Shown one piece after another: positions 3,001-54,222 of a stretch of DNA of 64,000 nucleotides (the stretch's first letter is position 1; the number at the start of each line of letters is the position of its first letter). The position numbers and the translations under genes were made by a program. Source of the stretch: Candidatus Hydrogenedentota bacterium (GTDB taxonomy: Bacteria > Hydrogenedentota > Hydrogenedentia > Hydrogenedentales > GCA-2746185); the NCBI GenBank assembly GCA_947486375.1, contig CANKTP010000001.1, positions 17,118 through 81,117 of the forward strand, given 5' to 3'. The notes beneath the pieces were generated by a model. That model did no database searches and was not told where the DNA came from. It worked only from the letters and a program-made list of their open reading frames with translations.

Positions 3001-3325
3001 CCTTACAGTGCCTGTCGGGGCGGTCGCCGGAACTGTCCTGCTCACGAACAATCGCCTGGACACGCTAAGTTGGGAAGTCGACCTGGATCCCTCGTCGCCC
3101 ACGGGACCGTCCGGGCCCCTGTTCGATGCCCTCACCCTGCCGGAAGGCGTCGAGCGCGTTCGTTTTTCCCCGAACTCAAGCGTACTCGAACCCGGGCATT
3201 CGGTGGAAATTGCGGTGACGATAGATCGAGCCGGGCTGCCGGCCGGCGTAATTTTCGGCGACGTGGGCATCCTTACAAATCTGACGGTCGACCCCGTCGC
3301 GCTTCGCTTAAACGTGGTGAAATAA
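2..3325 (+). CDS. Large extracellular surface protein, 5'-truncated at the window edge. It has repeated Ig-like beta-sandwich domains (choice-of-anchor-D/ASH-like) and a central von Willebrand factor A (vWA) domain.
   Basis: The reading frame is open from nt 2 with no upstream stop; the first alternative start (GTG) is at 29. There is no signal peptide at the apparent N-terminus, consistent with truncation. Repeated motifs of the form 'FG.LDFG....ILTIGVGNTG' are typical of choice-of-anchor D domains. The vWA MIDAS-like motif 'ILLDFTGSM ... VSDGNDT' sits at about 1580-2000. The protein is Thr/Asp/Gly-rich. It is paralogous to the next gene. Confidence 0.6.
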   Translation, partial: TEFTWTAREVRRIGEPAENLWTASDIPFLTLEPNTATDGTVTGEDRIEGTTSTEIDQINLIANRTGLASRDYTDIGIEIQSSAGIQVVPVSLKVIQALSVTPTVPLLIQPNLNSETFTIRNNGSLPLSYRVDALSDPDDLGSIIPLPEYVDRIPPGSIPAGSSKPIVVTIDRTGLDPAQYTTYLLIRTEVGSPATNGGTAVVEVIFGVGGVGVFEVTPDNITETVNIFGSTEPRDIQSITISNPGTQPLTFALKFEEASDDLLGEPAELPSFISIVPTSGTVAAGRDLDLKVTLDPTGLSEETRVDINVIIEAEGLGSDTVRLQVSSELGPRLSIQQEPPFRTFGSLDFGRDKDILTIGVGNTGRVGQSLKFRLQNAKPSSLIILPGLATGESTANECLFSEYISCHDWQQFSVAIRRSAINPASDVDGGSFEIVAVDDAGAELEGIDPISVSVKVERAPLRVEGATNRSRPPSVMRFVFMLRDSLLKTVDTLDRDVMRSLQFDIEENELPLELDETNFFVQGPENLVHNIVILLDFTGSMFNAGTEESPPVAQGVRIEAMRKAVVDFIEHLAEIDHPENFRIAIHEYHEQDQISNVIHPFSTSTDSLAGALENFTLAPADHGESEIFDALDDAVTALDGQDAGVISFDEADVRSIIFVSDGNDTSSALDISAVIDHANEKRVRLYPVSYGDNANLGNLIPMASETGGSTYSVLGTSTLASFFGTADKEGDIWYDLQRQLALTYISLADGETTYNITVSLADNVSGQFERDATVFTGDSRAGQLSLLTGGNTATADANGIAEVIVRLDYAPRNISQFRLRFIIPPEYRANLLIPADPGPGFVDDAVLLSASDDDGLLSGWHMAPEGDNVYSLVTFPDNPLPFGAFGNMMRLTFHGLTPGDEFEVGFRVDNTLYQQADPNSSVNTKFFVYPGAHTNPEGVLAVTKNPGIAGPGESIAALQDTSFNPEAVFAYDRDKDGLFDFDDPFPDDKDAPGAMIDPAFLTVPVGAVAGTVLLTNNRLDTLSWEVDLDPSSPTGPSGPLFDALTLPEGVERVRFSPNSSVLEPGHSVEIAVTIDRAGLPAGVIFGDVGILTNLTVDPVALRLNVVK

Positions 3326-3384
3326 TGTGGCGGCATGGCGGGGTAGCCGATGCCGGCAAGCCGGTACGCAGTAAGGAGCAGGAC

Positions 3385-6300
3385 ATGTCTCGCATGACAG
3401 TACGCTTGGCGAAGACTGCCGTGGCGATCGTCGCCGCCGTCGCGCTCGCCGGGTGTCCCACCGGCGGGGGGGCCACGCTCACGATTTCGCAAGTCGCGTT
3501 CGTATTCAATAGTGACGCCACTGCGGATACATTCACCATCTCCAACACCGGCTCCGGGGATTTGGCATGGTTCGTCACGGCCGACGTCCTGCCTGATTGG
3601 CTCCAGCTCTCCCCGCTCGAGGGAACTGTCAGCGCCAATCCGGACGGCGATTTGAACGGCGCGCAAGTGGTGACCATGTCCCTAGTCGAGGCGGAGGCAG
3701 AGGTCCTTGAACCGGGCCTCTATCGCGAGGAGTTCACCGTCTTCTCGGACGGGGGAAATGAGGTCATCTCGGTCACGCTACGCGTCTCGACGCTTGGCGA
3801 TCTCATCGTCGACCCGGCGGAAATTCCCTTCGGCGACATCACGGTCGAGGCGTCGTTCACCATTGCCAATGGCGGCGACGAGGCGCTCAACTGGGAGATA
3901 GCCTCGATAGAACCCGAGGACGAATGGCTCAGCATCGCCACCGGCAGTCCCCGCGAAGGGACCATTCCCAATTCGGGCTCGGAGCCGCAGACGGTCAGGG
4001 TCGCCGTAAACCGCAACGCCCTTGAGCCGGACGACTATATCGGTTCCATCGTCGTAACCTCGGACGGCGGTACCAGGACAATCGGCGTTACGATGTCAGT
4101 GACCGAACTGGCCGGGGAATTGCAGGTTGCCCCGGACGAACTGAGTTTCGAGACCGACACGCAACAGACCAAACAGGTCGTGGTCCGGAACACGGGCACC
4201 GCTGCCATCGAGTGGTCGATCAAGTCGAACACGGGCGATTTGCCAGACCGGCTCAACTTCGATGTGACCTCCGGGGACATCGCGGCCGGTGCCGCAGGCG
4301 ACCGTCTGGCCCTCACGGTCGACGCGACAAACCTAGATCCCGCGACGTACCGCCAAACGATTGTCTTCTCGGCGGTCGGCCCCGACAACGAATTCGCCGG
4401 CCCAGACGAATCCCTGGCCGTGACCCTTACGGTCCCGATTCCGATCCCGAAACTCGAGGTCATCACCTCCCTGCCGGATCATCGAATCGCGATGGCGGGC
4501 CAACAGACCGACGACTTCTTCCGTATCGAAAACGCCGGGACCGGGGTGCTCGTGTGGACACTGGCCGTGAGCGAAGATTCCGGATGGATCCAGATCGCGG
4601 AAGAAGACTTGTCCGGTTCATCCGACATCGATAGCGGCATCGTCGACTTCACCATCGATAGGGCCTCATTGAACCCGGGCACCCAGGTCGGAACCGTGAC
4701 CGTTAGCTCGTCCAGCGACCCTGCGGCCGATCCCGATGTGATCGTTACCATAGAAGCCGTGGTGCTCCCTCCCCGGCTCGAGGTGGTGCCCGATATCCTT
4801 GAGTTCGACACAAACATCGTTACCCGGCGTATCCTGATTTTCAATTCCGGCGTGGGAGAAATCACGTGGACCATCGACACCGACGATGACGCCACCGATC
4901 CGCTCCAGGCGGATGAACTTCCGGGATGGCTCCGCCGGCCTGGTAACGGCCCGGCCTTTTTCTCGAAAACCTCCGGCGTGGTGAGCGCGAACACGACCGA
5001 CCTTGTCGAAATCTCCGTGAACCGAAACGGCTTGCCTCCGGGCAATTATGCATGGCCCTGCACCTCCGCCGCCGATTGCGTCGCCCCGGGCGATTTTGCC
5101 GATTTCCCGGATTTGCCGCAAATCGTCATCCGCGGCGGCACGCGCGTTGTCCCGTTGCGGCTATTCATGTCCGTTTCCGAGAATCCCGCGTTCGCCGTTA
5201 ACACCGGCGGCAGCGTGGATTTGGATGGGGTCGCTTTCGTGAATGTCGGTTTACAAACCGAAGCGGACTTCACCATCTCCAACGAAGGAACGGGCACGCT
5301 GACATGGCGAATCATGCCGGATCCGGAGGAATCTTTCCCCTCATGGCTCACCGTCGGCCCCCAGGGGCCCAATTCCCTGGCGAGTTCCGACGGCGATGTC
5401 CCGATTCACATCGCGGTAAACCGGACTGGTCTCACCGCAGGCTCGCAGAAATACACCTTCCACTTTATCACCGACGACCCCGACACGCCTGACGTCCCGG
5501 TACGGGTCGAAATGGTCGTGCCTCCGGTGCCCATAATCGAGGTGTCCCCTGAGAACCTCGACTTCGGGTTCGCGGACACCACTGCGGACGTGTTTGTCGC
5601 AAATTTTGGCGACGATCCCTCCGTGTTGGATTTCGAGGTGACCAGTAACAAACCCTGGCTCTTCGCGTTCCCCGCCATCGGGCAGAGCCAGGGCGTCGCC
5701 GATCCCGAATTGGCCGCGGACTACCAGGTGGTCAGCGTCTCGATTGACCGCTCGGGCCTCTCGGAAAGCGGCTCTGGGACGGGAACCCTCACCATTGTTG
5801 CCCTGATGGACGGTGTAGATGACGAGAACAACGCCATCAAAATCCCCGATCCATCCATCGAGCCTGCCGAGATATTGGTGTCGGTCGGAGCGGCCGAACT
5901 GTTTTTCGAGGTGGCCCCGGCCCGGCTGCGCGTACCGACTCAAGCGCGATACGTCATGTCGATGCGAAACCTTCGATTCGGACCGATCACCATTCCCGAC
6001 GACAAGTTGGCGGAAATTAGCAATGCGTTCCTCCTTTTCGAGGACAATCAAGCGGTCGAGTTGAGCGAGACAAATTATTTCGTCACCAGCGCGTCGAACC
6101 TGCGCACCGAAATCGCGATACTCCTCGACTATTCCGGAAGCGCCGTCGAGTCCGCATACCTCGCCCAGGACAATCACTTGGCGGTCCTGGATCATCTGGT
6201 CGACGAGGCCGCCGAAAACGGCACGGGACGCGATTACGAGGAATTCGACGGGTTCGCCGAGGCGCCGGATCCGCTCCAGTTCATCTACAACGCGACCATC

Positions 6301-9300
6301 GGCAAACTAATCTCCGAACTCCCCGAGCATTACCGCATCGCGATCCGGGAATTCCACGACCGCGATCAGGAAGGTCAAACCGTAATCGGTTTTACTCCCA
6401 ACACCGTTGCGGGCCGCGTGAGACTTATCGAAGCGCTTGAAGCGATCAATATCACCGATCCCGGCGCCACCGAGCTGGTGCCGGCGATAATCGATGCCGC
6501 GACCGCCATCTATTCCGAGGACGTTCCGCTGCCATCGAGAAATCCCGTTGTGCCGATCATTTCGTTCAACGATGCGGACGTGCGGGGAATTATCGTGGTC
6601 TCGGACGGCCGTTTAACCACGGGTCCCACGGAAATCCCCGACGCAGTGGATGCCTTGCGAGGTTTCCGCGCACGCCTGTTCGCTATTTCGTGGGGTGCCG
6701 AGCCCAATCCGGGCCCCTTGGCGACCATTGCCGCCGAGACGGGAGGTCACCTCTACGTGGCCCCCCTGTTGCTCAATGGCCCCTTGCTCGGCGAAGACAC
6801 GGAACGGGTGCCCGGCATCGAGACATTGTACGATTGGTGCAGCACGGACATACTGGACGACGATTGCGACTTGTCGATCAAGAACGACCTCATATCGCAA
6901 CTGGTCCTGAGCTACGTCTCGCTCAGCGCGGAAGATACAGTGGCAAGCCGCACTGCGGCCACCTTCAACGATCCGAGCGATGGGCGCTTTCCCTGCGACC
7001 TGCCGAACCAAGGCCTCATCTCGGGAGGTTTTTCCCAGGACATCGATATCGGATTGGTGAACGGCAACCTCTCGCCCTTTGTTGCGTTCCCCGGCGGAAT
7101 CACCAACGTGGCCCAATTTGGGATGTCCACGCTTGGCGATGAACGCGGGCTTGCCACGGTCGATATATTCATGGACTACATGCCGCATGACATTCGCACC
7201 ATGCGATTTGTGTTTGCCGCCAATGAAATCAATCCCGACACGGCGGTCTCGATTGACGACATCAACTTGGAAGTCGTAATCGCTACCATTGGCGACGGCG
7301 GGGTGGCTTCCACGGCATGGACCCTGACCGGGCCGGTGGACAGCGGAATCGATGCCGAAACCAGCCTCGACACAGTGACCTACACCTTCGACCTAGCCGG
7401 CGGGCCGCCGATCGAATACGGTCTTTTCGGGAATCTCCTGCGCGCCACCATGGACGTCCCGGGAGGCACGCCGTTCAACTTCCGGCTGCTTTCCATCACC
7501 GGCGAGACCGGAAACGACGATGTTCCTGGATTCACGCACCCTGACGGGATTCCCATCGCGGCGGATGAAGACGCTGTCCCCATCGATGCATTGGCGCCCT
7601 CGTTCCCGACCGCGCGTTTCTCGAACACGATACTTGACTTCTTCGATTCGGAAAGCGTGGCTACCTTCACCATCGAGAATATCGGCGGGGCATTTACCGA
7701 GGGCGGAATCTCGCTCCAATGGAACGTAATCGGCGGGGAGAAGCCGACCGAGGGGGTCCGTGTGTTCCCGTTCGTGGGCAATCTTGCCACCACCGCCGAC
7801 GTGGATCCGGTCCGGGTATTCGTCGACCGGAGCGCATTCGATCCCGGCCAACTCGGGGCCACGTTCGACATGCGAGCGGCAACGGGCATAGGCGGGGTGG
7901 TCCAAGATATCCCGTTTGTCATTAGTGGAATTATCCAGGATCCCGTGATCGAGGTGGTTTCCGGCGGATTTAGTCCTCCGGACACGCAACAACTCCCGTT
8001 CGACGTGTCCCCCCTCGATCTTCGCCAGCAAGAGGAGGTGGTCACGGTCCTCAATACCGGGGACAGCAGCATGGGCTTTTTCCGCGCGGACGATGCCCCT
8101 GCGTGGTTGGATGCCGACCAAACCGGAAACAACATCGTCGATCCCAACGATCTACCCCCGGGCGATACGGCCGTCCCCTTCAATATGATCGTCAAGGTTG
8201 ACCCCACCCTGCTTGGGTTTGTCTCCCCGGTCGTATTTCCGATCGCTATCCAGCACGACATCGTGCTTGTCGGCACCGATCCGAACGGGCGCGAGATCGG
8301 GAGGCAAACTATCCGGGTCATCGCGAATGTCAGTCCGAATCCGATCACCGTCGCGGATATCCCGGACGCGACCGTAACCCAGGGGTCCACCTATACTGGC
8401 CCAACCCCGGCGATACTCGAGACGGGCGCCATTCCATTGGCTTGGACGCTGGTGTCCGGCCCTGCCGGCATGACTATCAATGCTTCTACCGGTGTCGTGA
8501 GCTATCCCAATGCGAGCTTGACGGGGAGCCCGCATACGGTCACGATACAAGCAAATCGCACGGACAATGCCGCGACGTTGGATACCGAGACGTGGCTTTT
8601 GACGGTGGCGCCGCTCGCCATCGTGGACATACCGGACGATTCGGTGGTCGAGGGCGACTCGTATACCGGACCTACGCCGGCTAGTGCGTCTCCCGGTGCG
8701 CAGACGTTGACGTGGTCGCTGGTCGTCGGCCCGGCTGGAATGACCATTAGCGCCGCGACCGGCGTCGTGTCATACCCTGTGGCCAGTCTCGCGGGAAGTC
8801 CGCATCTCGTGACAATCCGCGCGCAAAATGCCACGGACCCGGCGATTGTTGCCAGCGAATCCTGGTTGCTCGCCGTGCTCGCCACGTCGCCGGTGATACA
8901 GACCATTTCGAATATCACCGTGAACGAAGGCGCCGCCTATGTGGGACCGATACCCACCTTGCTCCAAGGCGGCGAGGTCCCCGTGGTGTGGACGTTGCTG
9001 CTCGGCCCTGCCGGCATGACGATCGACCCGGCCACGGGTCAGGTGACGTATCCCAACGCCAGCCCAGCCGGCAGTCCGTACTTCATCACCATCAAGGTCG
9101 CAAACGCGGAAGACCCCTCCTTGTTCGATATTATCTCGTGGCAATTGACGGTCACGCCGACGCCCGTGGCGCCGATTCTGGCCGCAATCGACGACGACAC
9201 CGTGGCGAATAACGACCCCTACACGGGCCCGACGCCGGTGGTGGTGACGGGCACGTTGCCCGTGACGTTCAGCCTCGTGCAGTCCGCGCCGGGGATGACC

Positions 9301-9432
9301 ATCGTTGCGACCACGGGCGTGGTGTCGTGGTCCGCCGCGGACAGCACCGTTGGCACGGTGACCATTGGTATCCGCGTCGTGAACACGGCCGGAACCTACA
9401 TCGAGTTCTTTGATCTCACGGTGGACCCATAG
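3385..9432 (+). CDS. Giant (2,016-aa) lipoprotein-type surface protein. It has multiple choice-of-anchor-D-like Ig domains, a vWA domain (about 6100-6620) and 4 C-terminal cadherin-like/'putative Ig' (He_PIG-like) repeats.
   Basis: The track ORF 3070..9432 overlaps the upstream gene. An internal ATG at 3385 is preceded by AAGGAG (3374-3379). It is followed by a lipoprotein signal 'MSRMTVRLAKTAVAIVAAVALAGC' with the lipobox LAGC. A perfect MIDAS motif 'LLDYSGS' is present, with downstream 'VVSDGRLTTG'. The C-terminus carries four ~91-aa repeats containing 'YTGPTP...GPAGMTI..ATGVVSYP'. Confidence 0.75.
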   Translation: MSRMTVRLAKTAVAIVAAVALAGCPTGGGATLTISQVAFVFNSDATADTFTISNTGSGDLAWFVTADVLPDWLQLSPLEGTVSANPDGDLNGAQVVTMSLVEAEAEVLEPGLYREEFTVFSDGGNEVISVTLRVSTLGDLIVDPAEIPFGDITVEASFTIANGGDEALNWEIASIEPEDEWLSIATGSPREGTIPNSGSEPQTVRVAVNRNALEPDDYIGSIVVTSDGGTRTIGVTMSVTELAGELQVAPDELSFETDTQQTKQVVVRNTGTAAIEWSIKSNTGDLPDRLNFDVTSGDIAAGAAGDRLALTVDATNLDPATYRQTIVFSAVGPDNEFAGPDESLAVTLTVPIPIPKLEVITSLPDHRIAMAGQQTDDFFRIENAGTGVLVWTLAVSEDSGWIQIAEEDLSGSSDIDSGIVDFTIDRASLNPGTQVGTVTVSSSSDPAADPDVIVTIEAVVLPPRLEVVPDILEFDTNIVTRRILIFNSGVGEITWTIDTDDDATDPLQADELPGWLRRPGNGPAFFSKTSGVVSANTTDLVEISVNRNGLPPGNYAWPCTSAADCVAPGDFADFPDLPQIVIRGGTRVVPLRLFMSVSENPAFAVNTGGSVDLDGVAFVNVGLQTEADFTISNEGTGTLTWRIMPDPEESFPSWLTVGPQGPNSLASSDGDVPIHIAVNRTGLTAGSQKYTFHFITDDPDTPDVPVRVEMVVPPVPIIEVSPENLDFGFADTTADVFVANFGDDPSVLDFEVTSNKPWLFAFPAIGQSQGVADPELAADYQVVSVSIDRSGLSESGSGTGTLTIVALMDGVDDENNAIKIPDPSIEPAEILVSVGAAELFFEVAPARLRVPTQARYVMSMRNLRFGPITIPDDKLAEISNAFLLFEDNQAVELSETNYFVTSASNLRTEIAILLDYSGSAVESAYLAQDNHLAVLDHLVDEAAENGTGRDYEEFDGFAEAPDPLQFIYNATIGKLISELPEHYRIAIREFHDRDQEGQTVIGFTPNTVAGRVRLIEALEAINITDPGATELVPAIIDAATAIYSEDVPLPSRNPVVPIISFNDADVRGIIVVSDGRLTTGPTEIPDAVDALRGFRARLFAISWGAEPNPGPLATIAAETGGHLYVAPLLLNGPLLGEDTERVPGIETLYDWCSTDILDDDCDLSIKNDLISQLVLSYVSLSAEDTVASRTAATFNDPSDGRFPCDLPNQGLISGGFSQDIDIGLVNGNLSPFVAFPGGITNVAQFGMSTLGDERGLATVDIFMDYMPHDIRTMRFVFAANEINPDTAVSIDDINLEVVIATIGDGGVASTAWTLTGPVDSGIDAETSLDTVTYTFDLAGGPPIEYGLFGNLLRATMDVPGGTPFNFRLLSITGETGNDDVPGFTHPDGIPIAADEDAVPIDALAPSFPTARFSNTILDFFDSESVATFTIENIGGAFTEGGISLQWNVIGGEKPTEGVRVFPFVGNLATTADVDPVRVFVDRSAFDPGQLGATFDMRAATGIGGVVQDIPFVISGIIQDPVIEVVSGGFSPPDTQQLPFDVSPLDLRQQEEVVTVLNTGDSSMGFFRADDAPAWLDADQTGNNIVDPNDLPPGDTAVPFNMIVKVDPTLLGFVSPVVFPIAIQHDIVLVGTDPNGREIGRQTIRVIANVSPNPITVADIPDATVTQGSTYTGPTPAILETGAIPLAWTLVSGPAGMTINASTGVVSYPNASLTGSPHTVTIQANRTDNAATLDTETWLLTVAPLAIVDIPDDSVVEGDSYTGPTPASASPGAQTLTWSLVVGPAGMTISAATGVVSYPVASLAGSPHLVTIRAQNATDPAIVASESWLLAVLATSPVIQTISNITVNEGAAYVGPIPTLLQGGEVPVVWTLLLGPAGMTIDPATGQVTYPNASPAGSPYFITIKVANAEDPSLFDIISWQLTVTPTPVAPILAAIDDDTVANNDPYTGPTPVVVTGTLPVTFSLVQSAPGMTIVATTGVVSWSAADSTVGTVTIGIRVVNTAGTYIEFFDLTVDP
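8330..9430 (+). repeat. Four tandem ~273-nt coding repeats encoding ~91-aa cadherin-like/He_PIG-type Ig domains at the C-terminus of the 3385..9432 protein.
   Basis: In the translation, blocks of the form 'I.DIPD.TV..G..YTGPTP......P..W.LV.GPAGMTI...TGVVSYP.ASL.GSPH.VTI' recur four times. Confidence 0.6.
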
Positions 9433-18614: not shown

Positions 18615-18660
18615 CTATCTATGCCTCAAGGAATTGCAGGGAGTAGATTGTTTACGGCAC

Positions 18661-18689
18661 TTGACTAATTTTCGAATAGTGTCTATCCT
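18661..18689 (+). promoter_or_regulatory. Near-consensus sigma70-type promoter (TTGACT-17 nt-TATCCT) upstream of the coiled-coil/MshEN gene
   Basis: TTGACT at about 18661-18666, a 17-nt spacer, and TATCCT at about 18684-18689. It sits in a 104-nt intergenic gap. Confidence 0.4.
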
Positions 18690-18718
18690 TAGCACGGCAA
18701 TAGCGGCGTGAAACCTCC

Positions 18719-20191
18719 GTGTACGGGACAAATTTGACGACGGGGTACGACTGGATGGACAAGCAGGGACTGGACGACTTATTTACCAAGGTGAAGGTCG
18801 CGCTCGGCGAGCATGCGGCCCGGGCCGTGGATGGGAACAACGACATTTCGGCGCGTATAGCGGAGATTCGCGATACGTTGGGCGAGGTGATCGACAGGGC
18901 CGCGAGCGAGCGGGCGAAATCCGTGGGTCTCGCCGATGCGGTAAAGGAACGCCTCAAGGCCCTCGAGGAGTCGATTCCGCGACTGCCCTCAGAGGAGGAT
19001 AAGGAGCGGCTCGCAAAACTGGAGAAGTCGCTTGGCGAGCGCAGCGACGAAGTCGTCGCGTCGAAAAAACGAATCGCCCAACTTGAAAAGGCGCTTTCCG
19101 AGCACGCGGAATCGGAACAACACGCCGCACGAACGATTGCCGCCCTCGAGAAGGAACTTCTCGAACGCAACGAGGCCACCCAAGCCGCAACGCACCGAAT
19201 CGCCGAGCTGGAGAGCCAGGCTGCGGCGATTCCACGGGAAAGGTTGGCCGAACTCGAGAAAACCGTCGCCGACGCCAGAAACGCCGGGAAGGCGTCCGAG
19301 GAAAAACAGAAGGCCCTTTGGGACCAAGTGTCCGCCGAGAAGTCAGCGACCGAGGCAGCGTCGCGGCGGGTATCCGAGCTGGAAGTGGCGGTGCAGGATG
19401 CCCGTGGCGAGCTGGAGTCGCTCCGCAAGGAACGCCAAGCGGAACGGAAGAATCTCGATGAGGCGAATATTTCCGCCCGGGAGGCGGACAACCTCGCGAG
19501 AATGCTCGAGGCGGAGAAGGAACGCGCGAACGCCCTTGATCGAGAACTTGTCGATGAGCGCAAAAAGAGCATGAAATCGGTCCTCGCGCAGCAGCTTACC
19601 GAGGCCCTCAAGGATCGGGAGGACACCCTCGAGGAGGCCATCCGCCTTCGCGCCGAGCTTGCGACGCTCCGAAACGAAGCGCAACCCGCGGGCCCAGGCC
19701 CGGCGAAACCCAAGGACAAAATCGAGGAAAAGATCCGGCAGGCCGCCGCGCCGGACAGCGAGGAAGCGAGGAAGCGCATGGGGGACATCCTCGTGGATGC
19801 GGGCGTGATCACCGGGAAACAACTCGAGGACGCCATCGCGGAACAGAGGGAGTTTCCCATGAAGCGACTCGGGGCGATCCTGGTCGAGAAGAGATTCGCC
19901 AGCGAGGATGTCGTGGCCCAGGCGCTGGCGTTCCAACGCAACGTCGAGTTCGTCCGAATCAAGGCGGAGACCATCGACACGGCCGCCGCAAAGCTCATTT
20001 CGGGCCGGCTCGCCGAACACCACGGTTGCATCCCGATTAGCACGTTCCGGGGAAAGATGACCCTGGCGATGATCAATCCGCTCGATCTCATCGCGATCGA
20101 GGATGTCGAGCGAGCGAGCAACCACCAAGTCGACCCGGTGGTCGCCACCTCGACCGACATCATCAATTGGATTCGCGAAATCTACGACTGA
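18719..20191 (+). CDS. Coiled-coil protein with a C-terminal MshEN domain (N-terminal domain of type II secretion ATPase GspE). It is a putative c-di-GMP receptor.
   Basis: The N-terminal ~330 aa are heptad-rich (ELE/KALSE/RLAELE). The C-terminus contains two tandem matches to the MshEN c-di-GMP motif RLGxxLLxxGLIxxxxLxxxLxxQ. The first is 'RMGDILVDAGVITGKQLEDAIAEQ'. The second is 'RLGAILVEKRFASEDVVAQALAFQ'. A T2SSE_N-like tail '...MINPLDLIAIEDV...' follows them. The track start at 18719 is GTG; an alternative ATG is at 18755. Confidence 0.7.
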   Translation: MYGTNLTTGYDWMDKQGLDDLFTKVKVALGEHAARAVDGNNDISARIAEIRDTLGEVIDRAASERAKSVGLADAVKERLKALEESIPRLPSEEDKERLAKLEKSLGERSDEVVASKKRIAQLEKALSEHAESEQHAARTIAALEKELLERNEATQAATHRIAELESQAAAIPRERLAELEKTVADARNAGKASEEKQKALWDQVSAEKSATEAASRRVSELEVAVQDARGELESLRKERQAERKNLDEANISAREADNLARMLEAEKERANALDRELVDERKKSMKSVLAQQLTEALKDREDTLEEAIRLRAELATLRNEAQPAGPGPAKPKDKIEEKIRQAAAPDSEEARKRMGDILVDAGVITGKQLEDAIAEQREFPMKRLGAILVEKRFASEDVVAQALAFQRNVEFVRIKAETIDTAAAKLISGRLAEHHGCIPISTFRGKMTLAMINPLDLIAIEDVERASNHQVDPVVATSTDIINWIREIYD

Positions 20192-23050: not shown

Positions 23051-23086
23051 GCCGGGGTCTTGTGCCGGGCGCCCGGACTCGTTAGC

Positions 23087-26000
23087 ATGTCGGGGTACGA
23101 GGGCAGCAGCGGGGACGCACTCATGGAAACACTTGGCGGGAGCGGGAGCGAGTCGGGGCCCGAATCGGAAAGCCCCAGACAAGTATCGATACCCACGGTT
23201 CGCCCAGAAAAGGGCGGTCTTCGCCCGGATGCCCCGCGCACCCCCAGCCCCGCGCCCCAGACAAGGCCGCGCGAATACGATGGGTTTCAATTCTCGTCGC
23301 GCTTCGGACGGCTTCGGGTTCCCCAAGGCCGGATGTATCCCGTCTCGCGCTGGATTCTCCTCATCGCTTTTGTCTTGGCGAGTGTTTACACCGTAGGCCG
23401 AATGATCTGGAGCCAGACGCACACGCGCCTACCCAATTCGTTCGGTCTCGGACTCGATAGCGCGCACCACGCCAAGATATTCAATCTTGACGACGGATAT
23501 CGATTGGTCGAGGTTGACGGCATCCCGGTGGGGAACCCCGGCACGCTGTCCGAAGTGCTCGATTCGTCGTCCGCCAAGGAAACGCGGCTTCGATTCGAGA
23601 GGCAAGACCGTTCACGGCGAATCGCCCGCGAAGTTGTGTGGGTGGTGAGTCCCGAGTTGCCGGAGATCGATGGGCCAATTCACGACTCGTATCTCCTTGG
23701 CCCCGGCGTCGACCCCGGCCGGTACGGCATGGCCGGCGGGGAACGCATTGTTTCTGTCGGCGGCCCCTGGCCCGGCGGCCCTGGCTGGCAACGATTGTTC
23801 GATGTTCCGGACACCGGAATCCTAAGGCTCACGGTGCAACCCGCAGGCCGGGATTTGCCGCCTCACGATGTCATCATTTGCCACATCGATTGGAGTGCCC
23901 AGTGGACCCGATTTTCCGTGGGTTCCTTCTTGGGGTTCCTGGGCGTATTCGTCTTTTGGAGGTTGCCTGAGACGCGAAGCTCCCACGGTTTCACCGCCTT
24001 GACCCTGATGATGGGACTCTCGATTTTCTCGGGGGCGGTCCCGCATCCATACCGTCTCGAATTGGAGAATGTCGCGCGGCTGCTACTCCATGTGCTCTTG
24101 CCCTCGGCGGCGTTGCTATTCGTGCTGCGCTTCTCGGCATGGCGGCTGGCGGTTGCCAAGGCACGTTTCCCCATGCTGCTTACGTGGAGCCTCGGCGCGT
24201 GCGCCATCGTGGCGAATCGAAGGTTCTTTCCGGACGAGGCCGACGCGGGTTCGTTGGGAAGCCCGATCGTTCGGGCCATGATTGGCGTGTACGCGGCGCT
24301 GGTCCTGTGCGCTCTTTGCGGGGAACCGCTGGCCAGGGCATTCCGTGCACGCCTCCGGGCGACCGATCGCCAGCGCGGCATAACGATGCGTTTCGTCGCA
24401 TGCGTGGCCCTCCTCCTGGCCCTGGTGTACGCGGCCTTGTCCTATTGGGATGTCGGACGGGATATCAGGATATTCCTCGAATTTGCCGTAATGGCCTGCC
24501 CCGCGATGCTTGCGTATGCTGTCCTGCGCCATGGTGCGCTTGAGTTCCGGGAACTTATACGCGACGCGGCGCCCTATCTGGCGCTTCTCGTGGCGCTCCC
24601 AGCGGCCTACGCGGCATTGGTTGACGGACTCTTGCCCCTCGCCGGACTATGGGCCGGTCTCGAATTTGGCCTGGCAAGCCCGGTCGTCATGGCCGCACTG
24701 GGGCTTGCAGCTGTCCTTATCCGGCCGCGCATACGGGACCATTTCCAATTCCGAATCCAGGGCGTTCCGGCGAACTACGATTCCCTTCTCCAATCGTTCA
24801 GCGAGAAGGCCGCCATCGAGCGCATGCCCCAGGCTTTTTGCGACATGGCCGCGCGGGAACTTGCCCGTACTTCCCATGCGCCCAATGTCGTCATCATCAC
24901 AAGGTATCCCGGCGACGATAGTTGGAACATCGCCGCCGCGACGCCGGGGCCACGGTTGGAACGCGCCCTCGAGTGCATGGACGCCCTGGTCTCACTCCTG
25001 CAACTCTCCCGCAGGGAGATTCGCCGTGACGACTTGTTGGAAGACGTGCGTTACGGCGAGGTGCGATTGCGGGCGCTCGCGGCGATGGACGAGCTGTCCG
25101 CATCCGTTGTGCTTCCGATGATGATCCACGATCGAATGGTCGGTGTGGTCGCCTTCGGCGACAAGGCCGGTTTTCGAAACTTCTCGACCGACGATCTCCG
25201 CTCCTTGCGGAGGGTCACGCGCCACATGGCGTTCACTCTCTGGGGTATGGTCGACACGCTCTTGGCGCGGCGTAACACGCGGATAGTGGACCTGCACCCC
25301 GCGCTGCCCGACGTCATCGGTCGATGGAGCATTTCCGGGTTTCTGGGCAAGGGAGGCATGTCCTACGTATATCTCGGGCGCCATGAGGGTACCGAGGCGG
25401 CCGTCAAGGTGGCCAACGGGGCCGTGCAGGCGAGCGTTCTTTTGCTCGAGCGCTTTCACCGGGAGGCCCTCTCGATGAAACGCATTGACCATCCGAACAT
25501 TGTCCATGTCCTCGAGGTTGCCCACGCCAAAGGCGAACCCTATATCGCGTTGGAATACTTCTCGGGCGGCTCGCTGCGCGACATGGTCCGGACGCGCGGC
25601 CCGCTCGGGGAACCCGAGGTGCTCGATTACGCCCGCCAAGCCGTACACGGGCTAAACGCCGCACTTCGACACGGCGTCATTCACCGGGACATCAAACCGC
25701 GCAATTTGTTTCTTTCCTCCGGGGGGGTACTCAAGGTGGGGGACTTCGGGCTTGCGCGCATGGAGGATATTTCGACCATCACGAGCGTTGGCGACGTCTT
25801 GGGCACGCCCGATTACATGAGCCCCGAGGTGGCGCGGGGCGACCGCGTCGATTGGCGCGCCGATCAATATGCGTTGGGCATCACGATGTACGAGTTGCTC
25901 GCGGGGAAGCGGCCCTTCAAGTCCGATCGCGCCGATGCCCTCATCCTGCAATACCTCACCGGGTCCGTCCCCGATATTCGCAAGCAGCGTCCGGAGGTCT

Positions 26001-26152
26001 CCGTCCTGACGGCCCGGATCATCATCCGGATGATATCCAAGGTGCCGGAGAAGCGTTTCCCCTCGTATGACGAACTCATCGAGGCCCTGTCTCACGCACT
26101 CGAGTGGAACCGGGGCGGCGGCCAGGTAGACGGGAGCGAGGGAATTCATTGA
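23087..26152 (+). CDS. Multi-pass membrane sensor Ser/Thr protein kinase. It has an N-terminal PDZ-like segment, about 8 TM helices, a GAF-like domain and a Hanks-type kinase.
   Basis: The kinase motifs 'GKGGMSYVYLG', 'AVKV', 'HRDIKPRN', 'DFGLAR' and 'GTPDYMSPE' are present. A GAF-like block 'VLPMMIHDRMVGVVAFGDKAGFRNFS' is present. The start is uncertain: the track ORF begins with TTG at 23060, and ATGs lie at 23087, 23123 and 23333. Confidence 0.75.
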   Translation: MSGYEGSSGDALMETLGGSGSESGPESESPRQVSIPTVRPEKGGLRPDAPRTPSPAPQTRPREYDGFQFSSRFGRLRVPQGRMYPVSRWILLIAFVLASVYTVGRMIWSQTHTRLPNSFGLGLDSAHHAKIFNLDDGYRLVEVDGIPVGNPGTLSEVLDSSSAKETRLRFERQDRSRRIAREVVWVVSPELPEIDGPIHDSYLLGPGVDPGRYGMAGGERIVSVGGPWPGGPGWQRLFDVPDTGILRLTVQPAGRDLPPHDVIICHIDWSAQWTRFSVGSFLGFLGVFVFWRLPETRSSHGFTALTLMMGLSIFSGAVPHPYRLELENVARLLLHVLLPSAALLFVLRFSAWRLAVAKARFPMLLTWSLGACAIVANRRFFPDEADAGSLGSPIVRAMIGVYAALVLCALCGEPLARAFRARLRATDRQRGITMRFVACVALLLALVYAALSYWDVGRDIRIFLEFAVMACPAMLAYAVLRHGALEFRELIRDAAPYLALLVALPAAYAALVDGLLPLAGLWAGLEFGLASPVVMAALGLAAVLIRPRIRDHFQFRIQGVPANYDSLLQSFSEKAAIERMPQAFCDMAARELARTSHAPNVVIITRYPGDDSWNIAAATPGPRLERALECMDALVSLLQLSRREIRRDDLLEDVRYGEVRLRALAAMDELSASVVLPMMIHDRMVGVVAFGDKAGFRNFSTDDLRSLRRVTRHMAFTLWGMVDTLLARRNTRIVDLHPALPDVIGRWSISGFLGKGGMSYVYLGRHEGTEAAVKVANGAVQASVLLLERFHREALSMKRIDHPNIVHVLEVAHAKGEPYIALEYFSGGSLRDMVRTRGPLGEPEVLDYARQAVHGLNAALRHGVIHRDIKPRNLFLSSGGVLKVGDFGLARMEDISTITSVGDVLGTPDYMSPEVARGDRVDWRADQYALGITMYELLAGKRPFKSDRADALILQYLTGSVPDIRKQRPEVSVLTARIIIRMISKVPEKRFPSYDELIEALSHALEWNRGGGQVDGSEGIH

Positions 26153-50622: not shown

Positions 50623-52092
50623 TTGGCTTTACACAATAATTCGGCGGAGTCCGCAAGGGTGAACGGCGTCAAACGAAAAGTTCATTTTGTCGGTGTGGGC
50701 GGCATCGGCATGAGCGGACTTGCCGAAATCCTCCTGAATCTCGGATACGAAGTGTCCGGCTCCGATATTCACGCATCGGAAATCACCCGCCGCCTCGAGG
50801 AATTCGGGCTCTCCTTTCGCGAGGGCCATCAGGCATCGAATATCGGCGATGCTGGCATCCTCGTCGTCTCCGCCGCGGTGGCTGCGGACAATGTCGAGGT
50901 TGTCGCCGCGAAAGATCGCTCGACTCCCGTCATTCACCGGAGCGATTTACTCGCGGATCTGCTCCGGCTGAAGCCAAATGCGGTGGTGGTGGGCGGCACC
51001 CACGGCAAGACGACAACGACCTCGATGATCTCCGCCATCCTCGACCGGGCGAACATCGGGGCGACCTCGATCATCGGGGGCATCCTCCATCGGAGCGGCA
51101 CGAACGCGCGCTGGGGGACCGGCGAATATATTGTCGCCGAGGCCGACGAGCACGACGGATCGTTCCTGCGGCTTCACCCGACGATCGCGGTGGTGACGAA
51201 CATCGACGCCGAGCACCTCGAGTATTACGGCACCATTGACCGGATCAAGCGGGCCTTCGTCGATTTTTGCAATGGCGTGCCCTTCTACGGGTATTCGATC
51301 CTCTGCCGCGACGATGCCGGTGCCCGCGCCATACTCGAGCATGTGGACAGCGTGTGCCTTACCTATGGATTGGACGACGGTGCCTCGTTGACCGGGTCGA
51401 ATGTCGTCCTTGCCGAGGGGCGTCCCGGCGAATCCAACCTGCAGGGGCTCTCCCGCCTGCGTACCCGCTTCGACGTCACGAGCCATGACGCGCGCCTGCG
51501 CGCCACGGGCCGCCTGGGGACCGTCGAGATCAATGCAATTGGCGAGGACAACGTTCGCAACGCCCTCGCCGCGTGCGCCGTCGGCCTATGCCTCGGGATG
51601 CCGTTTCAGCGTATCGCCGATGGCCTCCGGGATTTCGACGGGGTACAGAGGCGTTTGCAGGTCCGGGGTACCGCCCGCGGGGTGGTCGTGGTCGAGGACT
51701 ATGCCCATCATCCGACCGAACTCGCCAGCACGCTGAACGCCGTCCGTTGGGCCGCGCCCAAGCGCGTCATTTGCGTGTTCCAACCGCACCTCTACAGCCG
51801 CACGAAATTCTTTAGCGACGACTTTGCCCGTGTCCTGTCGACGGCCGATCGGGCCGTCGTGACCGCAATCTATCCGTCGCGGGAGGAGGCCATGCCGGGC
51901 GTGGACGCCGCGCTCATCGTGGATGCCGCCCGCTCCGCGGGGGCCGAGCATGTCGAGCTGATCGAGGACATGAATGACGTCCCCGGGAGGCTCGCACCTG
52001 ATTTGCGCGCGGGTGACCTCGTGCTTGTGCTCGGCGCGGGAAACATCAACCGGATTGCCGGTCCGCTCTTGCGGGAAATTGAGGCGCGCTGA
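50623..52092 (+). CDS. murC: UDP-N-acetylmuramate--L-alanine ligase
   Basis: 'VHFVGVGGIGMSGLAEILLNLGYEVSGSD' and 'VVVGGTHGKTTTTSMI' are present, with a Mur ligase C-terminal domain. The track start is TTG; a GTG 12 codons downstream is an alternative. Confidence 0.85.
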   Translation: MALHNNSAESARVNGVKRKVHFVGVGGIGMSGLAEILLNLGYEVSGSDIHASEITRRLEEFGLSFREGHQASNIGDAGILVVSAAVAADNVEVVAAKDRSTPVIHRSDLLADLLRLKPNAVVVGGTHGKTTTTSMISAILDRANIGATSIIGGILHRSGTNARWGTGEYIVAEADEHDGSFLRLHPTIAVVTNIDAEHLEYYGTIDRIKRAFVDFCNGVPFYGYSILCRDDAGARAILEHVDSVCLTYGLDDGASLTGSNVVLAEGRPGESNLQGLSRLRTRFDVTSHDARLRATGRLGTVEINAIGEDNVRNALAACAVGLCLGMPFQRIADGLRDFDGVQRRLQVRGTARGVVVVEDYAHHPTELASTLNAVRWAAPKRVICVFQPHLYSRTKFFSDDFARVLSTADRAVVTAIYPSREEAMPGVDAALIVDAARSAGAEHVELIEDMNDVPGRLAPDLRAGDLVLVLGAGNINRIAGPLLREIEAR

Positions 52093-52871
52093 TGGCACGG
52101 CCCCGCAAACGCAGGCGGGCTGGACGCGGACGTTTCGTCGATCGTCCCATCGCATATGTCCTGGAGGCCGCGCTCGCCCTCGGCCTGCTCTACACGTTCG
52201 GCCAATCGTTCTATTCATACGCGCAGACCTCGCCTGCCTTCGGCGTCCGGAATATCCAGGCCCTGGGACTCCAGCGGCTCGACCTCGACGAGGTCGTCGC
52301 GGCGTCGGGCCTCACCACCGGGGACAACCTGTTGTTCCTCGACAAGGACGCCATCCGCGCGCGCGTCGAGTCCATGCCCTATGTGAAGTCCTGCGGCTTG
52401 CGGGTATCGTTTCCCGATCTCGTCATCCTCGACGTGGTCGAGCGCGAACCCTTCGCGGCGCTCTTGGTGCATAGCCGGTCATATGAGATCGATGCCGACG
52501 GCACCGTGTTGCGGGAGGTTGGCACCGCCGAGATGCCCCTCGCGCCCTTCATCAGTTGCGTGGGCGGACTGGAATTCGTCGACCTCGGCGACCGCATCGG
52601 CCTGCCCGCCCTGCAAGCCGCCCTCGAGCTTTGGAAAGTGTTCGGCGCCTCGCCGCTCGCGCGGCAATTCGAGATATCCGAAATCGCCGCGATTCATGAG
52701 GACGACCTTCGAATGTACGGTGCGGCCGTTCCCTACGAATTGCGCTGGGGACGGGGTGAATTCGCGGACCAGGCCCGTCGCCTAGAGATTCTATGGGAAA
52801 ACAAGGGAGGAGAGTTGGGATGCAACGAATTCCTCGATCTACGTTTCGGCGAAGGCCTGGTCTGCCGCTAG
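52092..52871 (+). CDS. ftsQ: Cell division protein FtsQ/DivIB (TM anchor + POTRA domain)
   Basis: The ATG overlaps the murC stop (ATGA). The N-terminus is basic and followed by a TM helix 'IAYVLEAALALGLLYTF'. A POTRA-like block 'VRNIQALGLQRLDLDEVVAASGL..GDNLLFLDKDAIRARVESMPYVKSCGL' is present. Confidence 0.75.
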   Translation: MARPRKRRRAGRGRFVDRPIAYVLEAALALGLLYTFGQSFYSYAQTSPAFGVRNIQALGLQRLDLDEVVAASGLTTGDNLLFLDKDAIRARVESMPYVKSCGLRVSFPDLVILDVVEREPFAALLVHSRSYEIDADGTVLREVGTAEMPLAPFISCVGGLEFVDLGDRIGLPALQAALELWKVFGASPLARQFEISEIAAIHEDDLRMYGAAVPYELRWGRGEFADQARRLEILWENKGGELGCNEFLDLRFGEGLVCR

Positions 52872-52965
52872 GATGGCCAACCGCGATACCGGGTTTGGAA
52901 ACATGCGTGATAGGATTATCAACGGGGTCTTCCGGGGCATGCCGGAAGCACGGAAAGGACCAGCG

Positions 52966-54222
52966 ATGAACATCGGGATATCGGATGAGCTCACGTCGTT
53001 CGACCAGGGGGCCGTCATCAAAGTCTGCGGCGTCGGCGGCGGCGGCAACAACGCCGTCATGCGGATGATCGAGGAGGGGCTTTCGGATGTGGAATTCATT
53101 GCAATCAATACGGACGCCCAGGCCCTCAAGAAGTCGCCGGCGGCGGTCCGGCTCCAAGTCGGCGCAGAGGTCACCGGCGGACTCGGTTCCGGCGCCAAGC
53201 CCGAGATAGGCCAGAAGGCCGCGATGGAGGATCGCGAGCGCATCGCGGATGTGCTTCGCGGGGCCGACATGGTCTTCATCACGGCCGGCATGGGTGGCGG
53301 CACCGGCACCGGCGCGGCGCCGATCGTGGCCGAGGTGGCCCGCTCGGGCGGCGCGCTCACGGTTGGGATCGTCACGCTCCCCTTCGGTTTCGAGGGAAAC
53401 GAGCGGATGGACAACGCCATGCGCGGCCTGGAGGCGCTCGAGCAACATGTCGACACCCTAATCGTCGTTCCCAACGATCGGGTCGCCGAGCTGTGCCAGA
53501 ACAACGTGTCGCTCCTCGATGCGTTCAAGCGCGCCGACGAGGTCCTCCATAACGGCGTGCGCGCTATCAGCGAGTTGATTACGGTTCCCGGTCTCATCAA
53601 TCTCGACTTTGCCGACGTGCGCACCATCATGCAATCCCGCGGCCGCGCCTTGATGGGGATCGGGGTCGCCGAGGGCGAGGGCCGCGCCATCCGCGCGGCC
53701 GAGGAGGCCATCATCTGTCCCTTGCTCGAGCAGTCGAACATACACGGCGCCATGGGCGTCATCGCCAACGTCAAGGGCGGGCGCGATATCGGCATGCGCG
53801 AGGTGCAGGATGCCGTGACCGCCGTGCAGAGGGCCGCGCATCCCAACGCCAACATCATTTTCGGCGCGGTCGTGGACGAACAAGAGCGTACCCAAATACA
53901 AGTCACCGTCATCGCAGCCGGATTCAGCAACCGCGCCACCGGGGGCCTTGCCCGCCAGCACCGCGCCGCCGCCGCGGACAATGTGATCGAGCTCCGGTCG
54001 AAGGAGCCCAAGGCCCGCGAGGTGGCTCCCGTGGCCGCGGCGCCCGCCTCCGCGGTTCCCGAGGTGCCAAGTCCCGCGACCGCGCAACCCAAGGCGCCGG
54101 AGCCCGAGCCGGATTATTTGTTTCCCCAAGACGAGCCCGCCGCCCGTCTCCCCAAGGCCTCGGATCCGGACGACGATATGAGCATTCCCGCGTTCATGCG
54201 GAACCGGAAGAAGTCGTCGTGA
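52966..54222 (+). CDS. ftsZ: Cell division GTPase FtsZ
   Basis: 'IKVCGVGGGGNNAV', the tubulin signature 'GMGGGTGTGAAPIVA' and 'NLDFADVRTIM' are present. The track ORF starts at 52873. The internal ATG at 52966 has GAAAGGA 6 nt upstream. It gives an N-terminus of typical length, 15 aa before 'AVIKV'. Confidence 0.85.
   Translation: MNIGISDELTSFDQGAVIKVCGVGGGGNNAVMRMIEEGLSDVEFIAINTDAQALKKSPAAVRLQVGAEVTGGLGSGAKPEIGQKAAMEDRERIADVLRGADMVFITAGMGGGTGTGAAPIVAEVARSGGALTVGIVTLPFGFEGNERMDNAMRGLEALEQHVDTLIVVPNDRVAELCQNNVSLLDAFKRADEVLHNGVRAISELITVPGLINLDFADVRTIMQSRGRALMGIGVAEGEGRAIRAAEEAIICPLLEQSNIHGAMGVIANVKGGRDIGMREVQDAVTAVQRAAHPNANIIFGAVVDEQERTQIQVTVIAAGFSNRATGGLARQHRAAAADNVIELRSKEPKAREVAPVAAAPASAVPEVPSPATAQPKAPEPEPDYLFPQDEPAARLPKASDPDDDMSIPAFMRNRKKSS

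Follow-up and report, generated by a model that had tools for sequence, protein, structure and literature searches.

Until the recent addition of ComFB, MshEN and PilZ were described as the two widespread receptor domains for the messenger cyclic di-GMP (c-di-GMP) (PMC12448109). Nearly all that is known of MshEN function was learned from NfrB and from the ATPases of secretion systems and pili. Here we describe a gene located in a stretch of 64,000 nucleotides (hereafter the window) from a Candidatus Hydrogenedentota bacterium (assembly GCA_947486375.1, contig CANKTP010000001.1, positions 17,118 to 81,117 of the forward strand). The encoded protein carries an MshEN domain at its C-terminal end, behind a long helical region with coiled-coil character, and contains no ATPase. 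By analogy with the characterised domains, we favour on balance the reading that it is an ATPase-less c-di-GMP receptor or adaptor mounted on a coiled-coil stalk.

The prototype of the domain is VcMshE (5HTL), which possesses two subdomains, two consecutive motifs of 24 residues that each include Arg1, Gly3 and Gln24, and hydrophobic triads. All of these elements are found in the protein described here. In VcMshE the domain is located at the N-terminus of a T2SSE ATPase, whereas here it forms the C-terminus of a coiled-coil protein. PilF from Thermus thermophilus harbors three MshEN-type domains ahead of its ATPase, and its GSPII-B domain (8PDK/8PKZ) shows that very tight binding tolerates non-canonical residues in the motifs. 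NfrB from Escherichia coli also lacks an ATPase and uses an MshEN domain near its C-terminus as the regulatory input to a c-di-GMP-activated glycosyltransferase. In addition, the same fold serves as a protein-docking surface in the Xanthomonas citri PilB(N)-PilZ complex (7LKM) and in the EpsE-N1/EpsL complex (2BH1), and the N-domains of Xanthomonas PilB and XpsE do not bind c-di-GMP on their own.

The initial annotation of this DNA stated that MshEN is normally fused to an ATPase. This holds as a majority rule, but non-ATPase proteins, namely NfrB, FrgA of M. xanthus, PA3740 of P. aeruginosa and Bd2402 of Bdellovibrio, were already catalogued in 2016 (PMC5013675 Supplementary Table 4). They show that MshEN can serve as a portable input for c-di-GMP also where no secretion ATPase is involved. 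The fusions reported by Wang et al. 2016 comprise ATPases, glycosyltransferases, REC, HD-GYP, CheA/CheX, kinases and uncharacterised regions (PMC5013675). None of their architectures joins a long coiled coil to a C-terminal MshEN domain, none is from Hydrogenedentota, and no comparable paralogous expansion is among them. Likewise, the literature on MshEN/coiled-coil combinations and on c-di-GMP or type IV pili in Hydrogenedentota yielded no description of the coiled-coil plus C-terminal MshEN architecture. The absence of an ATPase beside MshEN is thus already known, whereas for the coiled-coil architecture and its expansion in Hydrogenedentota we found no earlier description.

The C-terminal region of the protein (residue numbers throughout count from the ATG at 18755) matches the Pfam family MshEN (PF05157) with E = 8.8e-15 and 54.9 bits, against a gathering cutoff of 23.1, and the 53-residue NCBIfam model NF053729, named 'c-di-GMP_motif', with 55.1 bits against a cutoff of 38. 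A phmmer search of the PDB sequences returns the N-domains of PilF, PilB and MshE. We built an AlphaFold2 model on an 82-sequence alignment of the family, in which residues 341-478 have a predicted local distance difference test score (pLDDT) above 92. The predicted structure of this part is composed of a four-helix-bundle N-subdomain followed by an alpha/beta C-subdomain. Foldseek superimposes it on the c-di-GMP-bound VcMshE structure 5HTL with a template modelling (TM) score of 0.84 and a root-mean-square deviation of 2.3 A over 139 columns, ahead of several structures of PilF GSPII-B with bound c-di-GMP (TM ~0.75) and then of PilB(N)-PilZ and XpsE. The C-subdomain by itself lies within the PF05157 match, is modelled with pLDDT 94-98 in a beta-alpha pattern, and is matched by Foldseek to the N-domains of MshE, PilF, PilB and XpsE.

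The protein stops 0 residues past the MshEN domain, and Pfam and NCBIfam scans detect no T2SSE ATPase domain (PF00437) in it. The NCBIfam PilB model TIGR02538 aligns through its positions 2-136 only, with 47.7 bits against a cutoff of 675. These results confirm a complete C-terminal MshEN domain without an attached ATPase, as the initial annotation had proposed; the start it gave for the region, 19781, falls two codons inside motif I, and its end, 20188, coincides with the last sense codon. The protein is not of the NfrB type either. The alignment with the NCBIfam NfrB model is confined to residues 349-489 (counted from the GTG at 18719), that is, to the MshEN part, with 52 bits against a cutoff of 1170, and Pfam finds no glycosyltransferase domain in the protein. 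While the effector in NfrB is a membrane glycosyltransferase, here a soluble coiled coil, free of enzymatic domains, is the sole other element.

The two motifs of the N-subdomain were compared with the reference RLGxx(L/V/I)(L/V/I)xxG(L/V/I)(L/V/I)xxxxLxxxLxxQ, present in two 24-residue copies, and with the relaxed pattern of Wang et al. 2016. Motif I agrees with the strict consensus at 9/11 positions (L2 to M and L21 to I) and with the relaxed pattern at 11/11. It is separated from motif II by the 6-residue linker REFPMK, compared with 5 residues in VcMshE. Motif II agrees at 7-8/11 strict positions, with G10 (VcMshE G47) replaced by R, [LVI]12 by A and L17 by V. Two near-perfect motifs had been claimed for this domain; the sequences stand exactly as they were quoted and motif I fits the description, but the wording overstates motif II, which carries R380, A382 and V387. 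Relative to VcMshE, the substitutions are G47 to R, L49 to A, L54 to V and D108 to Asn. The positions of PilF D266 and R268 are occupied by N441 and L443.

Gly3 and Gln24 of both motifs are present as G343, Q364, G373 and Q394, and the hydrophobic triads M342/V387/L391 and L357/I361/L372 are retained. In the 82-member alignment, Gly3 is found in 79/82 and 80/82 and Gln24 in 80/82 and 81/82 of the sequences, whereas the unspecified 'x' positions vary freely. The importance of these four residues is evident from mutants of the characterised domains. VcMshE G11L and G40I, altered at the equivalents of G343 and G373, gain no thermal stabilisation from c-di-GMP, consistent with little or no binding (PMC5013675). 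In PilF, the substitution Q190E reduces affinity, and Q190E plus Q218E (equivalents of Q364 and Q394) abolishes binding (PMC11731258). The conservation of both Gln and both Gly3 residues at 96% or more among paralogues of ~30% identity is the best available argument that ligand binding may be retained. Since profile hidden Markov models (HMMs), the predicted fold and the family-wide conservation of ligand-contact residues agree, we consider the protein a candidate c-di-GMP receptor.

The same fold would also be seen in a degenerate MshEN domain that has lost c-di-GMP binding and acts as a docking module on a structural coiled coil. Non-binding MshEN folds are well documented, and the N-domain of XpsE and that of Xanthomonas PilB, which binds PilZ, provide precedents; Foldseek matches XpsE and PilB(N)-PilZ as well. 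Several observations weigh against a functional receptor. Motif II fails the relaxed published pattern at position 10 alone, where R380 takes the place of G/A/S. This second Gly is kept in 69/82 family members, and in the window protein A382 and V387 additionally replace Leu-type residues. In place of the auxiliary guanine-contact Asp (PilF D266, VcMshE D108) the window protein has Asn (N441), as do at least 90% of the family members; this equivalence is based on the phmmer alignment to PilF and a published statement rather than on a direct alignment to 5HTL, and the non-binder PilF GSPII-A likewise has Asn at this position. GSPII-A with its consensus restored by mutation still does not bind (PMC12002112), so a good motif is no guarantee. 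Beyond the domain itself, the AlphaFold2 model is of a monomer, with a predicted TM score of 0.41, and cannot establish the oligomeric state. No family-wide conserved neighbour emerges from the gene neighbourhoods, as no neighbour family occurs in more than 11 of 82 loci. Pfam scans of the window proteins find no GGDEF, EAL or HD-GYP gene, and regular-expression searches for GG[DE]EF, EAL and HD..GYP over ~0.9 Mb of related loci, a weak scan that is uninformative at this sample size, gave nothing usable; the single HD..GYP match has no Pfam domain.

On the other hand, known non-binders have lost precisely the Gly3 or Gln residues that are kept across the 82 diverse members: XpsE carries G11V and Q61V, and GSPII-A has H33 and R62. 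The first Arg of motif I is missing in more than half of the family, which fits degeneration at first sight, but this residue is dispensable. PilF GSPII-B has Lys and Leu at the two positions and binds ~83-fold tighter than MshEN, and hydrophobic replacements of the first Arg in GSPII-B increase affinity (PMC11731258). VcMshE can do without the Asp contact of the C-subdomain, and in PilF this contact contributes no more than ~9-fold; in addition, the score of the domain lies well over the NCBIfam c-di-GMP-motif cutoff. Moreover, the site of GSPII-A is blocked by an extended, capped helix alpha-1 and by inter-subdomain contacts (PMC12002112), and in our model alpha-1 begins at residue 342 after a coil, with no GSPII-A-like extension predicted. 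Taken together, we regard degeneration as rather unlikely.

The region in front of the MshEN domain is predicted to be helical throughout most of its length. Residues 1-330 consist to 62% of Ala, Glu, Arg, Lys or Leu. In the AlphaFold2 model an N-terminal helix, a stalk helix of ~28 nm if straight, and a third helix follow each other and lead into a flexible linker, where pLDDT drops below 50 at residues 305-319 and residues 331-341 form a coil. The consensus LxxQLAxAL...LR is visible at the third helix in the 82-sequence alignment. Hydrophobicity along the stalk has periodicity peaks at 3.5 and ~7.2 residues, a heptad signature. The long N-terminal coiled coil of ~330 residues in the initial annotation is in line with these three helices and their heptad periodicity. 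In addition, the stalk contains a 21-residue repeat, in which AAxxR(I/V)A(E/Q)LE(K/Q) recurs at 21- or 42-residue spacings in this protein and its orthologues; the z-score of self-similarity is 4.8 for lag 21 and 5.1 for lag 42, compared with 1.4 for lag 7. Tandem Repeats Finder detects no DNA-level tandem repeat behind it, which indicates that the repeats are old and diverged. A 67%-identical orthologue (P0002) differs chiefly by a 48-residue insertion in the stalk and at few positions in MshEN, which argues that stalk length evolves by insertions and deletions while MshEN is under strong constraint (purifying selection).

A long coiled coil may also call to mind an SMC/Rad50-like protein of chromosome segregation or DNA repair. 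Some homologues carry the Joint Genome Institute annotations 'chromosome segregation ATPase' or 'SbcCD ATPase subunit', and weak NCBIfam matches connect the protein with the coiled-coil arms of SMC, Rad50 and MukB. The match to SMC_prok_B, however, amounts to 28.4 bits against a cutoff of 567 and covers the arm only; a Walker A/B head and a hinge are lacking, and Pfam finds no nucleoside triphosphatase (NTPase) domain. The absence of an NTPase domain effectively refutes these labels, which are compositional artefacts of coiled-coil sequence, and we give such a function almost no chance.

If the protein is an ATPase-less receptor on a stalk, its four parts, namely the N-terminal helix, the stalk, the conserved helix with its ~35-residue flexible linker, and the C-terminal MshEN domain, may work together as follows. 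The heptad-periodic stalk, partly built of 21-residue repeats, would probably form a coiled-coil dimer and carry the MshEN domains at the end of flexible linkers. A single c-di-GMP would be bound per domain, across the four-helix bundle of motifs I and II, as in VcMshE and PilF GSPII-B. Binding would reorient the C-terminal alpha/beta subdomain, as observed for GSPII-B, and thereby alter the engagement of a putative partner protein; the equivalent subdomain docks proteins in PilB, GspE and XpsE. The stalk would position the receptor at a cellular structure, or bridge it to one.

The window protein belongs to a sizeable family. A word-indexed search returned 110 relatives, ~103 of which have MshEN as their sole Pfam domain and no ATPase, and all NCBI-named relatives from this search are annotated as 'hypothetical protein' of Candidatus Hydrogenedentes. 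When one genome per GTDB species was scanned, 121 loci were obtained, of which 80 were kept; the retained loci are nearly all from Hydrogenedentota metagenome-assembled genomes (MAGs), and many genomes give 2-3 loci. Some bulk-binned MAGs from the European Nucleotide Archive are labelled Nitrospirales, and one such contig carries a family member (P0047) whose neighbourhood is that of a Hydrogenedentes member (P0007). Tandem pairs of paralogues, each gene ending in the conserved MshEN, are found at seven loci (L068, L069, L070, L079, L081, L085 and L087). When the MshEN domain alone was searched exhaustively with HMMER against 1.84 billion cluster representatives, 125 proteins were found at E <= 1e-30, and 11,786 at E <= 1e-3, which represent the wider superfamily. 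The 125 correspond to at least 125 clusters at 50% identity, with Candidatus Hydrogenedentota MAGs as the source of almost all, and most of them have 45-60% identity, one matched stretch and a C-terminal position.

We defined the family by an MshEN domain no more than ~30 residues from the C-terminus, more than 140 bits on a family-specific profile, and the HxCIP and NPLDLIAIEDVE motifs; the window protein, with 211.8 bits on this profile, is a member. Among ~90 members in 87 loci, MshEN is always 0-30 residues from the C-terminus, and total length ranges from 286 to 1275 residues. Conservation is concentrated at the ligand-contact positions and, in the C-subdomain, at H423, C425, the invariant P427 and N441-P442-x-D444-L445-x-A447-I448-E449-D450. 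Sequence comparison places the protein among the paralogues of a family almost confined to Hydrogenedentota, in which the MshEN 'plug' is highly conserved and the N-terminal regions differ. This combination suggests a shared partner or hub. A wider proposal is that the family constitutes a lineage-specific set of c-di-GMP-controlled coiled-coil scaffolds, in which the shared plug would dock c-di-GMP-dependently on a common hub and the variable stalks and N-termini would tether different structures; this we consider rather doubtful at present.

Three observations on MshEN in related sequences are recorded here in their own right. At the start of the C-subdomain, family members show at least 90% conservation of the HxCIP motif (H423, C425, P427; ~nucleotides 20021-20035); the corresponding stretch of PilB sequences reads (Y/H)x(I/V)(V/I)P and lacks the Cys. 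Directly 3' of the gene for an 834-residue family member, L045:7067-8410 (+ strand) encodes a 448-residue protein in which MshEN (52.5 bits) is accompanied by a cyclic-nucleotide-binding domain (PF00027, 73.4 bits) at the C-terminus. Finally, a 741-residue protein from the Candidatus Hydrogenedentota MAG AMX-MBFR-4 (BTUX01000257.1, L042:699-2921, - strand) has an N-terminal MshEN (PF05157, 59.9 bits) and a C-terminal DnaA-type AAA+ domain (PF00308, 164.7 bits). This architecture is absent from the list of Wang et al. 2016, and its domain composition may be a sign that a DnaA-like ATPase receives c-di-GMP input.

The features of the locus are collected in Table 1. The open reading frame (ORF) on the + strand spans 18719..20191 and comprises 490 codons from the GTG at 18719, with the stop at 20189-20191. 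In-frame alternative starts upstream of the ATG are this GTG and the TTG at 18734. A 100% identical protein (P0001) is present in public assemblies, one of them a 91-kb metagenomic contig, and is called from the TTG with 485 residues. We place the start at the ATG at 18755, giving 478 residues, because the alignment of upstream regions from orthologues extends to a conserved ATGGAC (Met-Asp), where the orthologous proteins also begin. An antisense ORF (18652..20166, 504 residues, rich in Ser, Ala and Arg) overlaps the gene; the G+C content of the window is ~62%. We rejected this ORF as the shadow of a high-GC gene, with every homology and domain signal found on the + strand.

Table 1 Features of the coiled-coil-MshEN gene, with nucleotide positions in the window
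Feature	Position	Strand	Details
Sigma-70-type promoter candidate	18661..18689	+	-35 TTGACT 18661-18666, 17-bp spacer, -10 TATCCT 18684-18689
Coiled-coil-MshEN coding sequence (probable start)	18755..20191	+	478 residues plus stop; ORF list and ATGGAC start kept in orthologues
N-terminal helix (head segment), predicted	18764..18970	+	Residues 4-72; AlphaFold2, pLDDT ~70-86; conserved in close orthologues only
Long stalk helix, predicted	18992..19558	+	Residues 80-268 (189 residues); AlphaFold2, pLDDT > 90
Family-conserved helix, predicted	19583..19672	+	Residues 277-306 (LAQQLTEALK...LR); AlphaFold2
Pro/Gly/Lys-rich flexible linker, predicted	19673..19774	+	Residues 307-340; short helix 321-330 inside
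MshEN motif I	19775..19846	+	Residues 341-364, RMGDILVDAGVITGKQLEDAIAEQ; aligns to VcMshE R9-Q32
MshEN motif II	19865..19936	+	Residues 371-394, RLGAILVEKRFASEDVVAQALAFQ; aligns to VcMshE R38-Q61; divergent, R380 at second Gly
MshEN C-terminal (T2SSE_N1-like) alpha/beta subdomain	19937..20188	+	Residues 395-478; HxCIP and NPLDLIAIEDVE motifs family-conserved

The promoter TTGACT-17-TATCCT, already pointed out in the initial annotation, is present upstream of the gene. It matches 9/12 consensus positions, and a consensus scan gives an expectation of 0.5 such sites by chance in the 2.1-kb region, so that taken alone this match is weak. Conservation among orthologues makes a better case. In the alignment of 4 orthologous upstream regions, the -35 box CTTGACTA and the length of the 17-bp spacer are invariant, and the -10 box is TATCCT in 2/4 and TATAGT in 2/4. 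A conserved A/T-rich block (ATTGTTTAC or ATTATTTAC) precedes the boxes, while the remaining spacer sequence diverges. Even orthologues with only ~45% protein identity retain the -35 box and the 17-bp spacing. Because the -35 box, the spacing and the A/T block are conserved while other spacer positions diverge, the promoter is probably functional. The gene is separated from its neighbours by 140 bp 5' of the ATG and by 134 bp on its 3' side, consistent with a separate transcription unit.

A gene for a PAF-acetylhydrolase-like hydrolase flanks the coiled-coil-MshEN gene upstream. Downstream lie hisG, surE, a membrane protein gene, a GAF-Ser/Thr kinase gene and a giant gene for a 7,674-residue S8-peptidase/PKD protein. 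We inspected the neighbourhoods of five family members (P0001, P0007, P0008, P0029 and P0047) and clustered the ORFs of the 82 loci all against all. The surroundings of homologous genes are unrelated to one another, and the neighbours that recur reflect sub-clade synteny, for example the arrangement NTP-transferase / gene / M16 peptidase ... PagL, PilZ.

This context bears on the idea that the protein is a dedicated regulator of type IV pili or type II secretion, whose MshEN domain would mimic the N-terminus of PilB or GspE, compete for or bridge to a PilM/GspL-type platform or a PilZ adaptor, and so bring pili under c-di-GMP control. The N-domains of PilB, PilF and MshE are its closest relatives in sequence and structure, and the equivalent subdomain docks GspL or PilZ in solved complexes. 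The window also encodes a PilT-like T2SSE ATPase (54219-55325), whose GTG start is overlapped by 4 bp by the stop of ftsZ (52873-54222). However, no pil or gsp gene adjoins the gene in the window or in any of the 82 related loci, and the PilT-like gene is located ~34 kb away in the division (dcw) cluster. Furthermore, 2-3 paralogues per genome with varied N-termini argue for more diverse outputs. A dedicated pilus or secretion regulator therefore appears improbable to us. An ftsZ-pilT module associated with the MshEN gene had been suggested earlier; the 4-bp overlap is real, but given the distance and the lack of a conserved pil/gsp neighbour, nothing links the pair to this gene. The 'orphan GspE N2-like mini-protein' mentioned with it was not located, and an hmmsearch with the family profile against the six-frame translation of the window found no second MshEN ORF.

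Other features of the window are recorded here. The dcw cluster (50623-55325) contains, in this order, murC, ftsQ and ftsZ, and ftsA is missing between the latter two. The 1,030-residue protein with GAF and Ser/Thr protein kinase domains (23060-26152, + strand) is encoded four genes downstream of the MshEN gene on the same strand, and no link between the two has been established. Two giant ORFs on the + strand presumably encode cell-surface or secreted proteins: the 7,674-residue protein (27428-50452), with S8 peptidase, He_PIG, PKD and MAM-like repeats, and a protein of ~2,100 residues (3070-9432) with He_PIG/BACON repeats.

The preferred reading of the protein as a c-di-GMP receptor presupposes the messenger in this phylum. 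PilZ-domain genes are present in related Hydrogenedentota loci and would represent a second class of c-di-GMP receptor there, so that c-di-GMP signalling probably exists in Hydrogenedentota. Separately, one of the PilZ proteins joins PilZ, a transmembrane segment and YkuD (L,D-transpeptidase) (L062:3207-4736, - strand). Its homologues are found beside 9 family loci of one sub-clade, and its domain composition suggests c-di-GMP input to peptidoglycan cross-linking in Hydrogenedentota.

In our literature search, neither c-di-GMP signalling nor type IV pili turned out to have been studied experimentally in Hydrogenedentota, an uncultured phylum. Should the protein not bind the messenger, it would add to the degenerate MshEN docking domains and be of limited interest. 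Its divergent motif II, with Arg at the second Gly, and N441 provide a test case for refining the rules by which binding is predicted. If c-di-GMP is bound, the outputs of this messenger would be extended to scaffold or adaptor proteins, and the family would offer a first entry point to c-di-GMP signalling and to the organisation of the cell in Hydrogenedentota. If, moreover, the members do form a set of scaffolds, they would constitute a cytoskeleton-like class of c-di-GMP effectors that has no description in any model organism.

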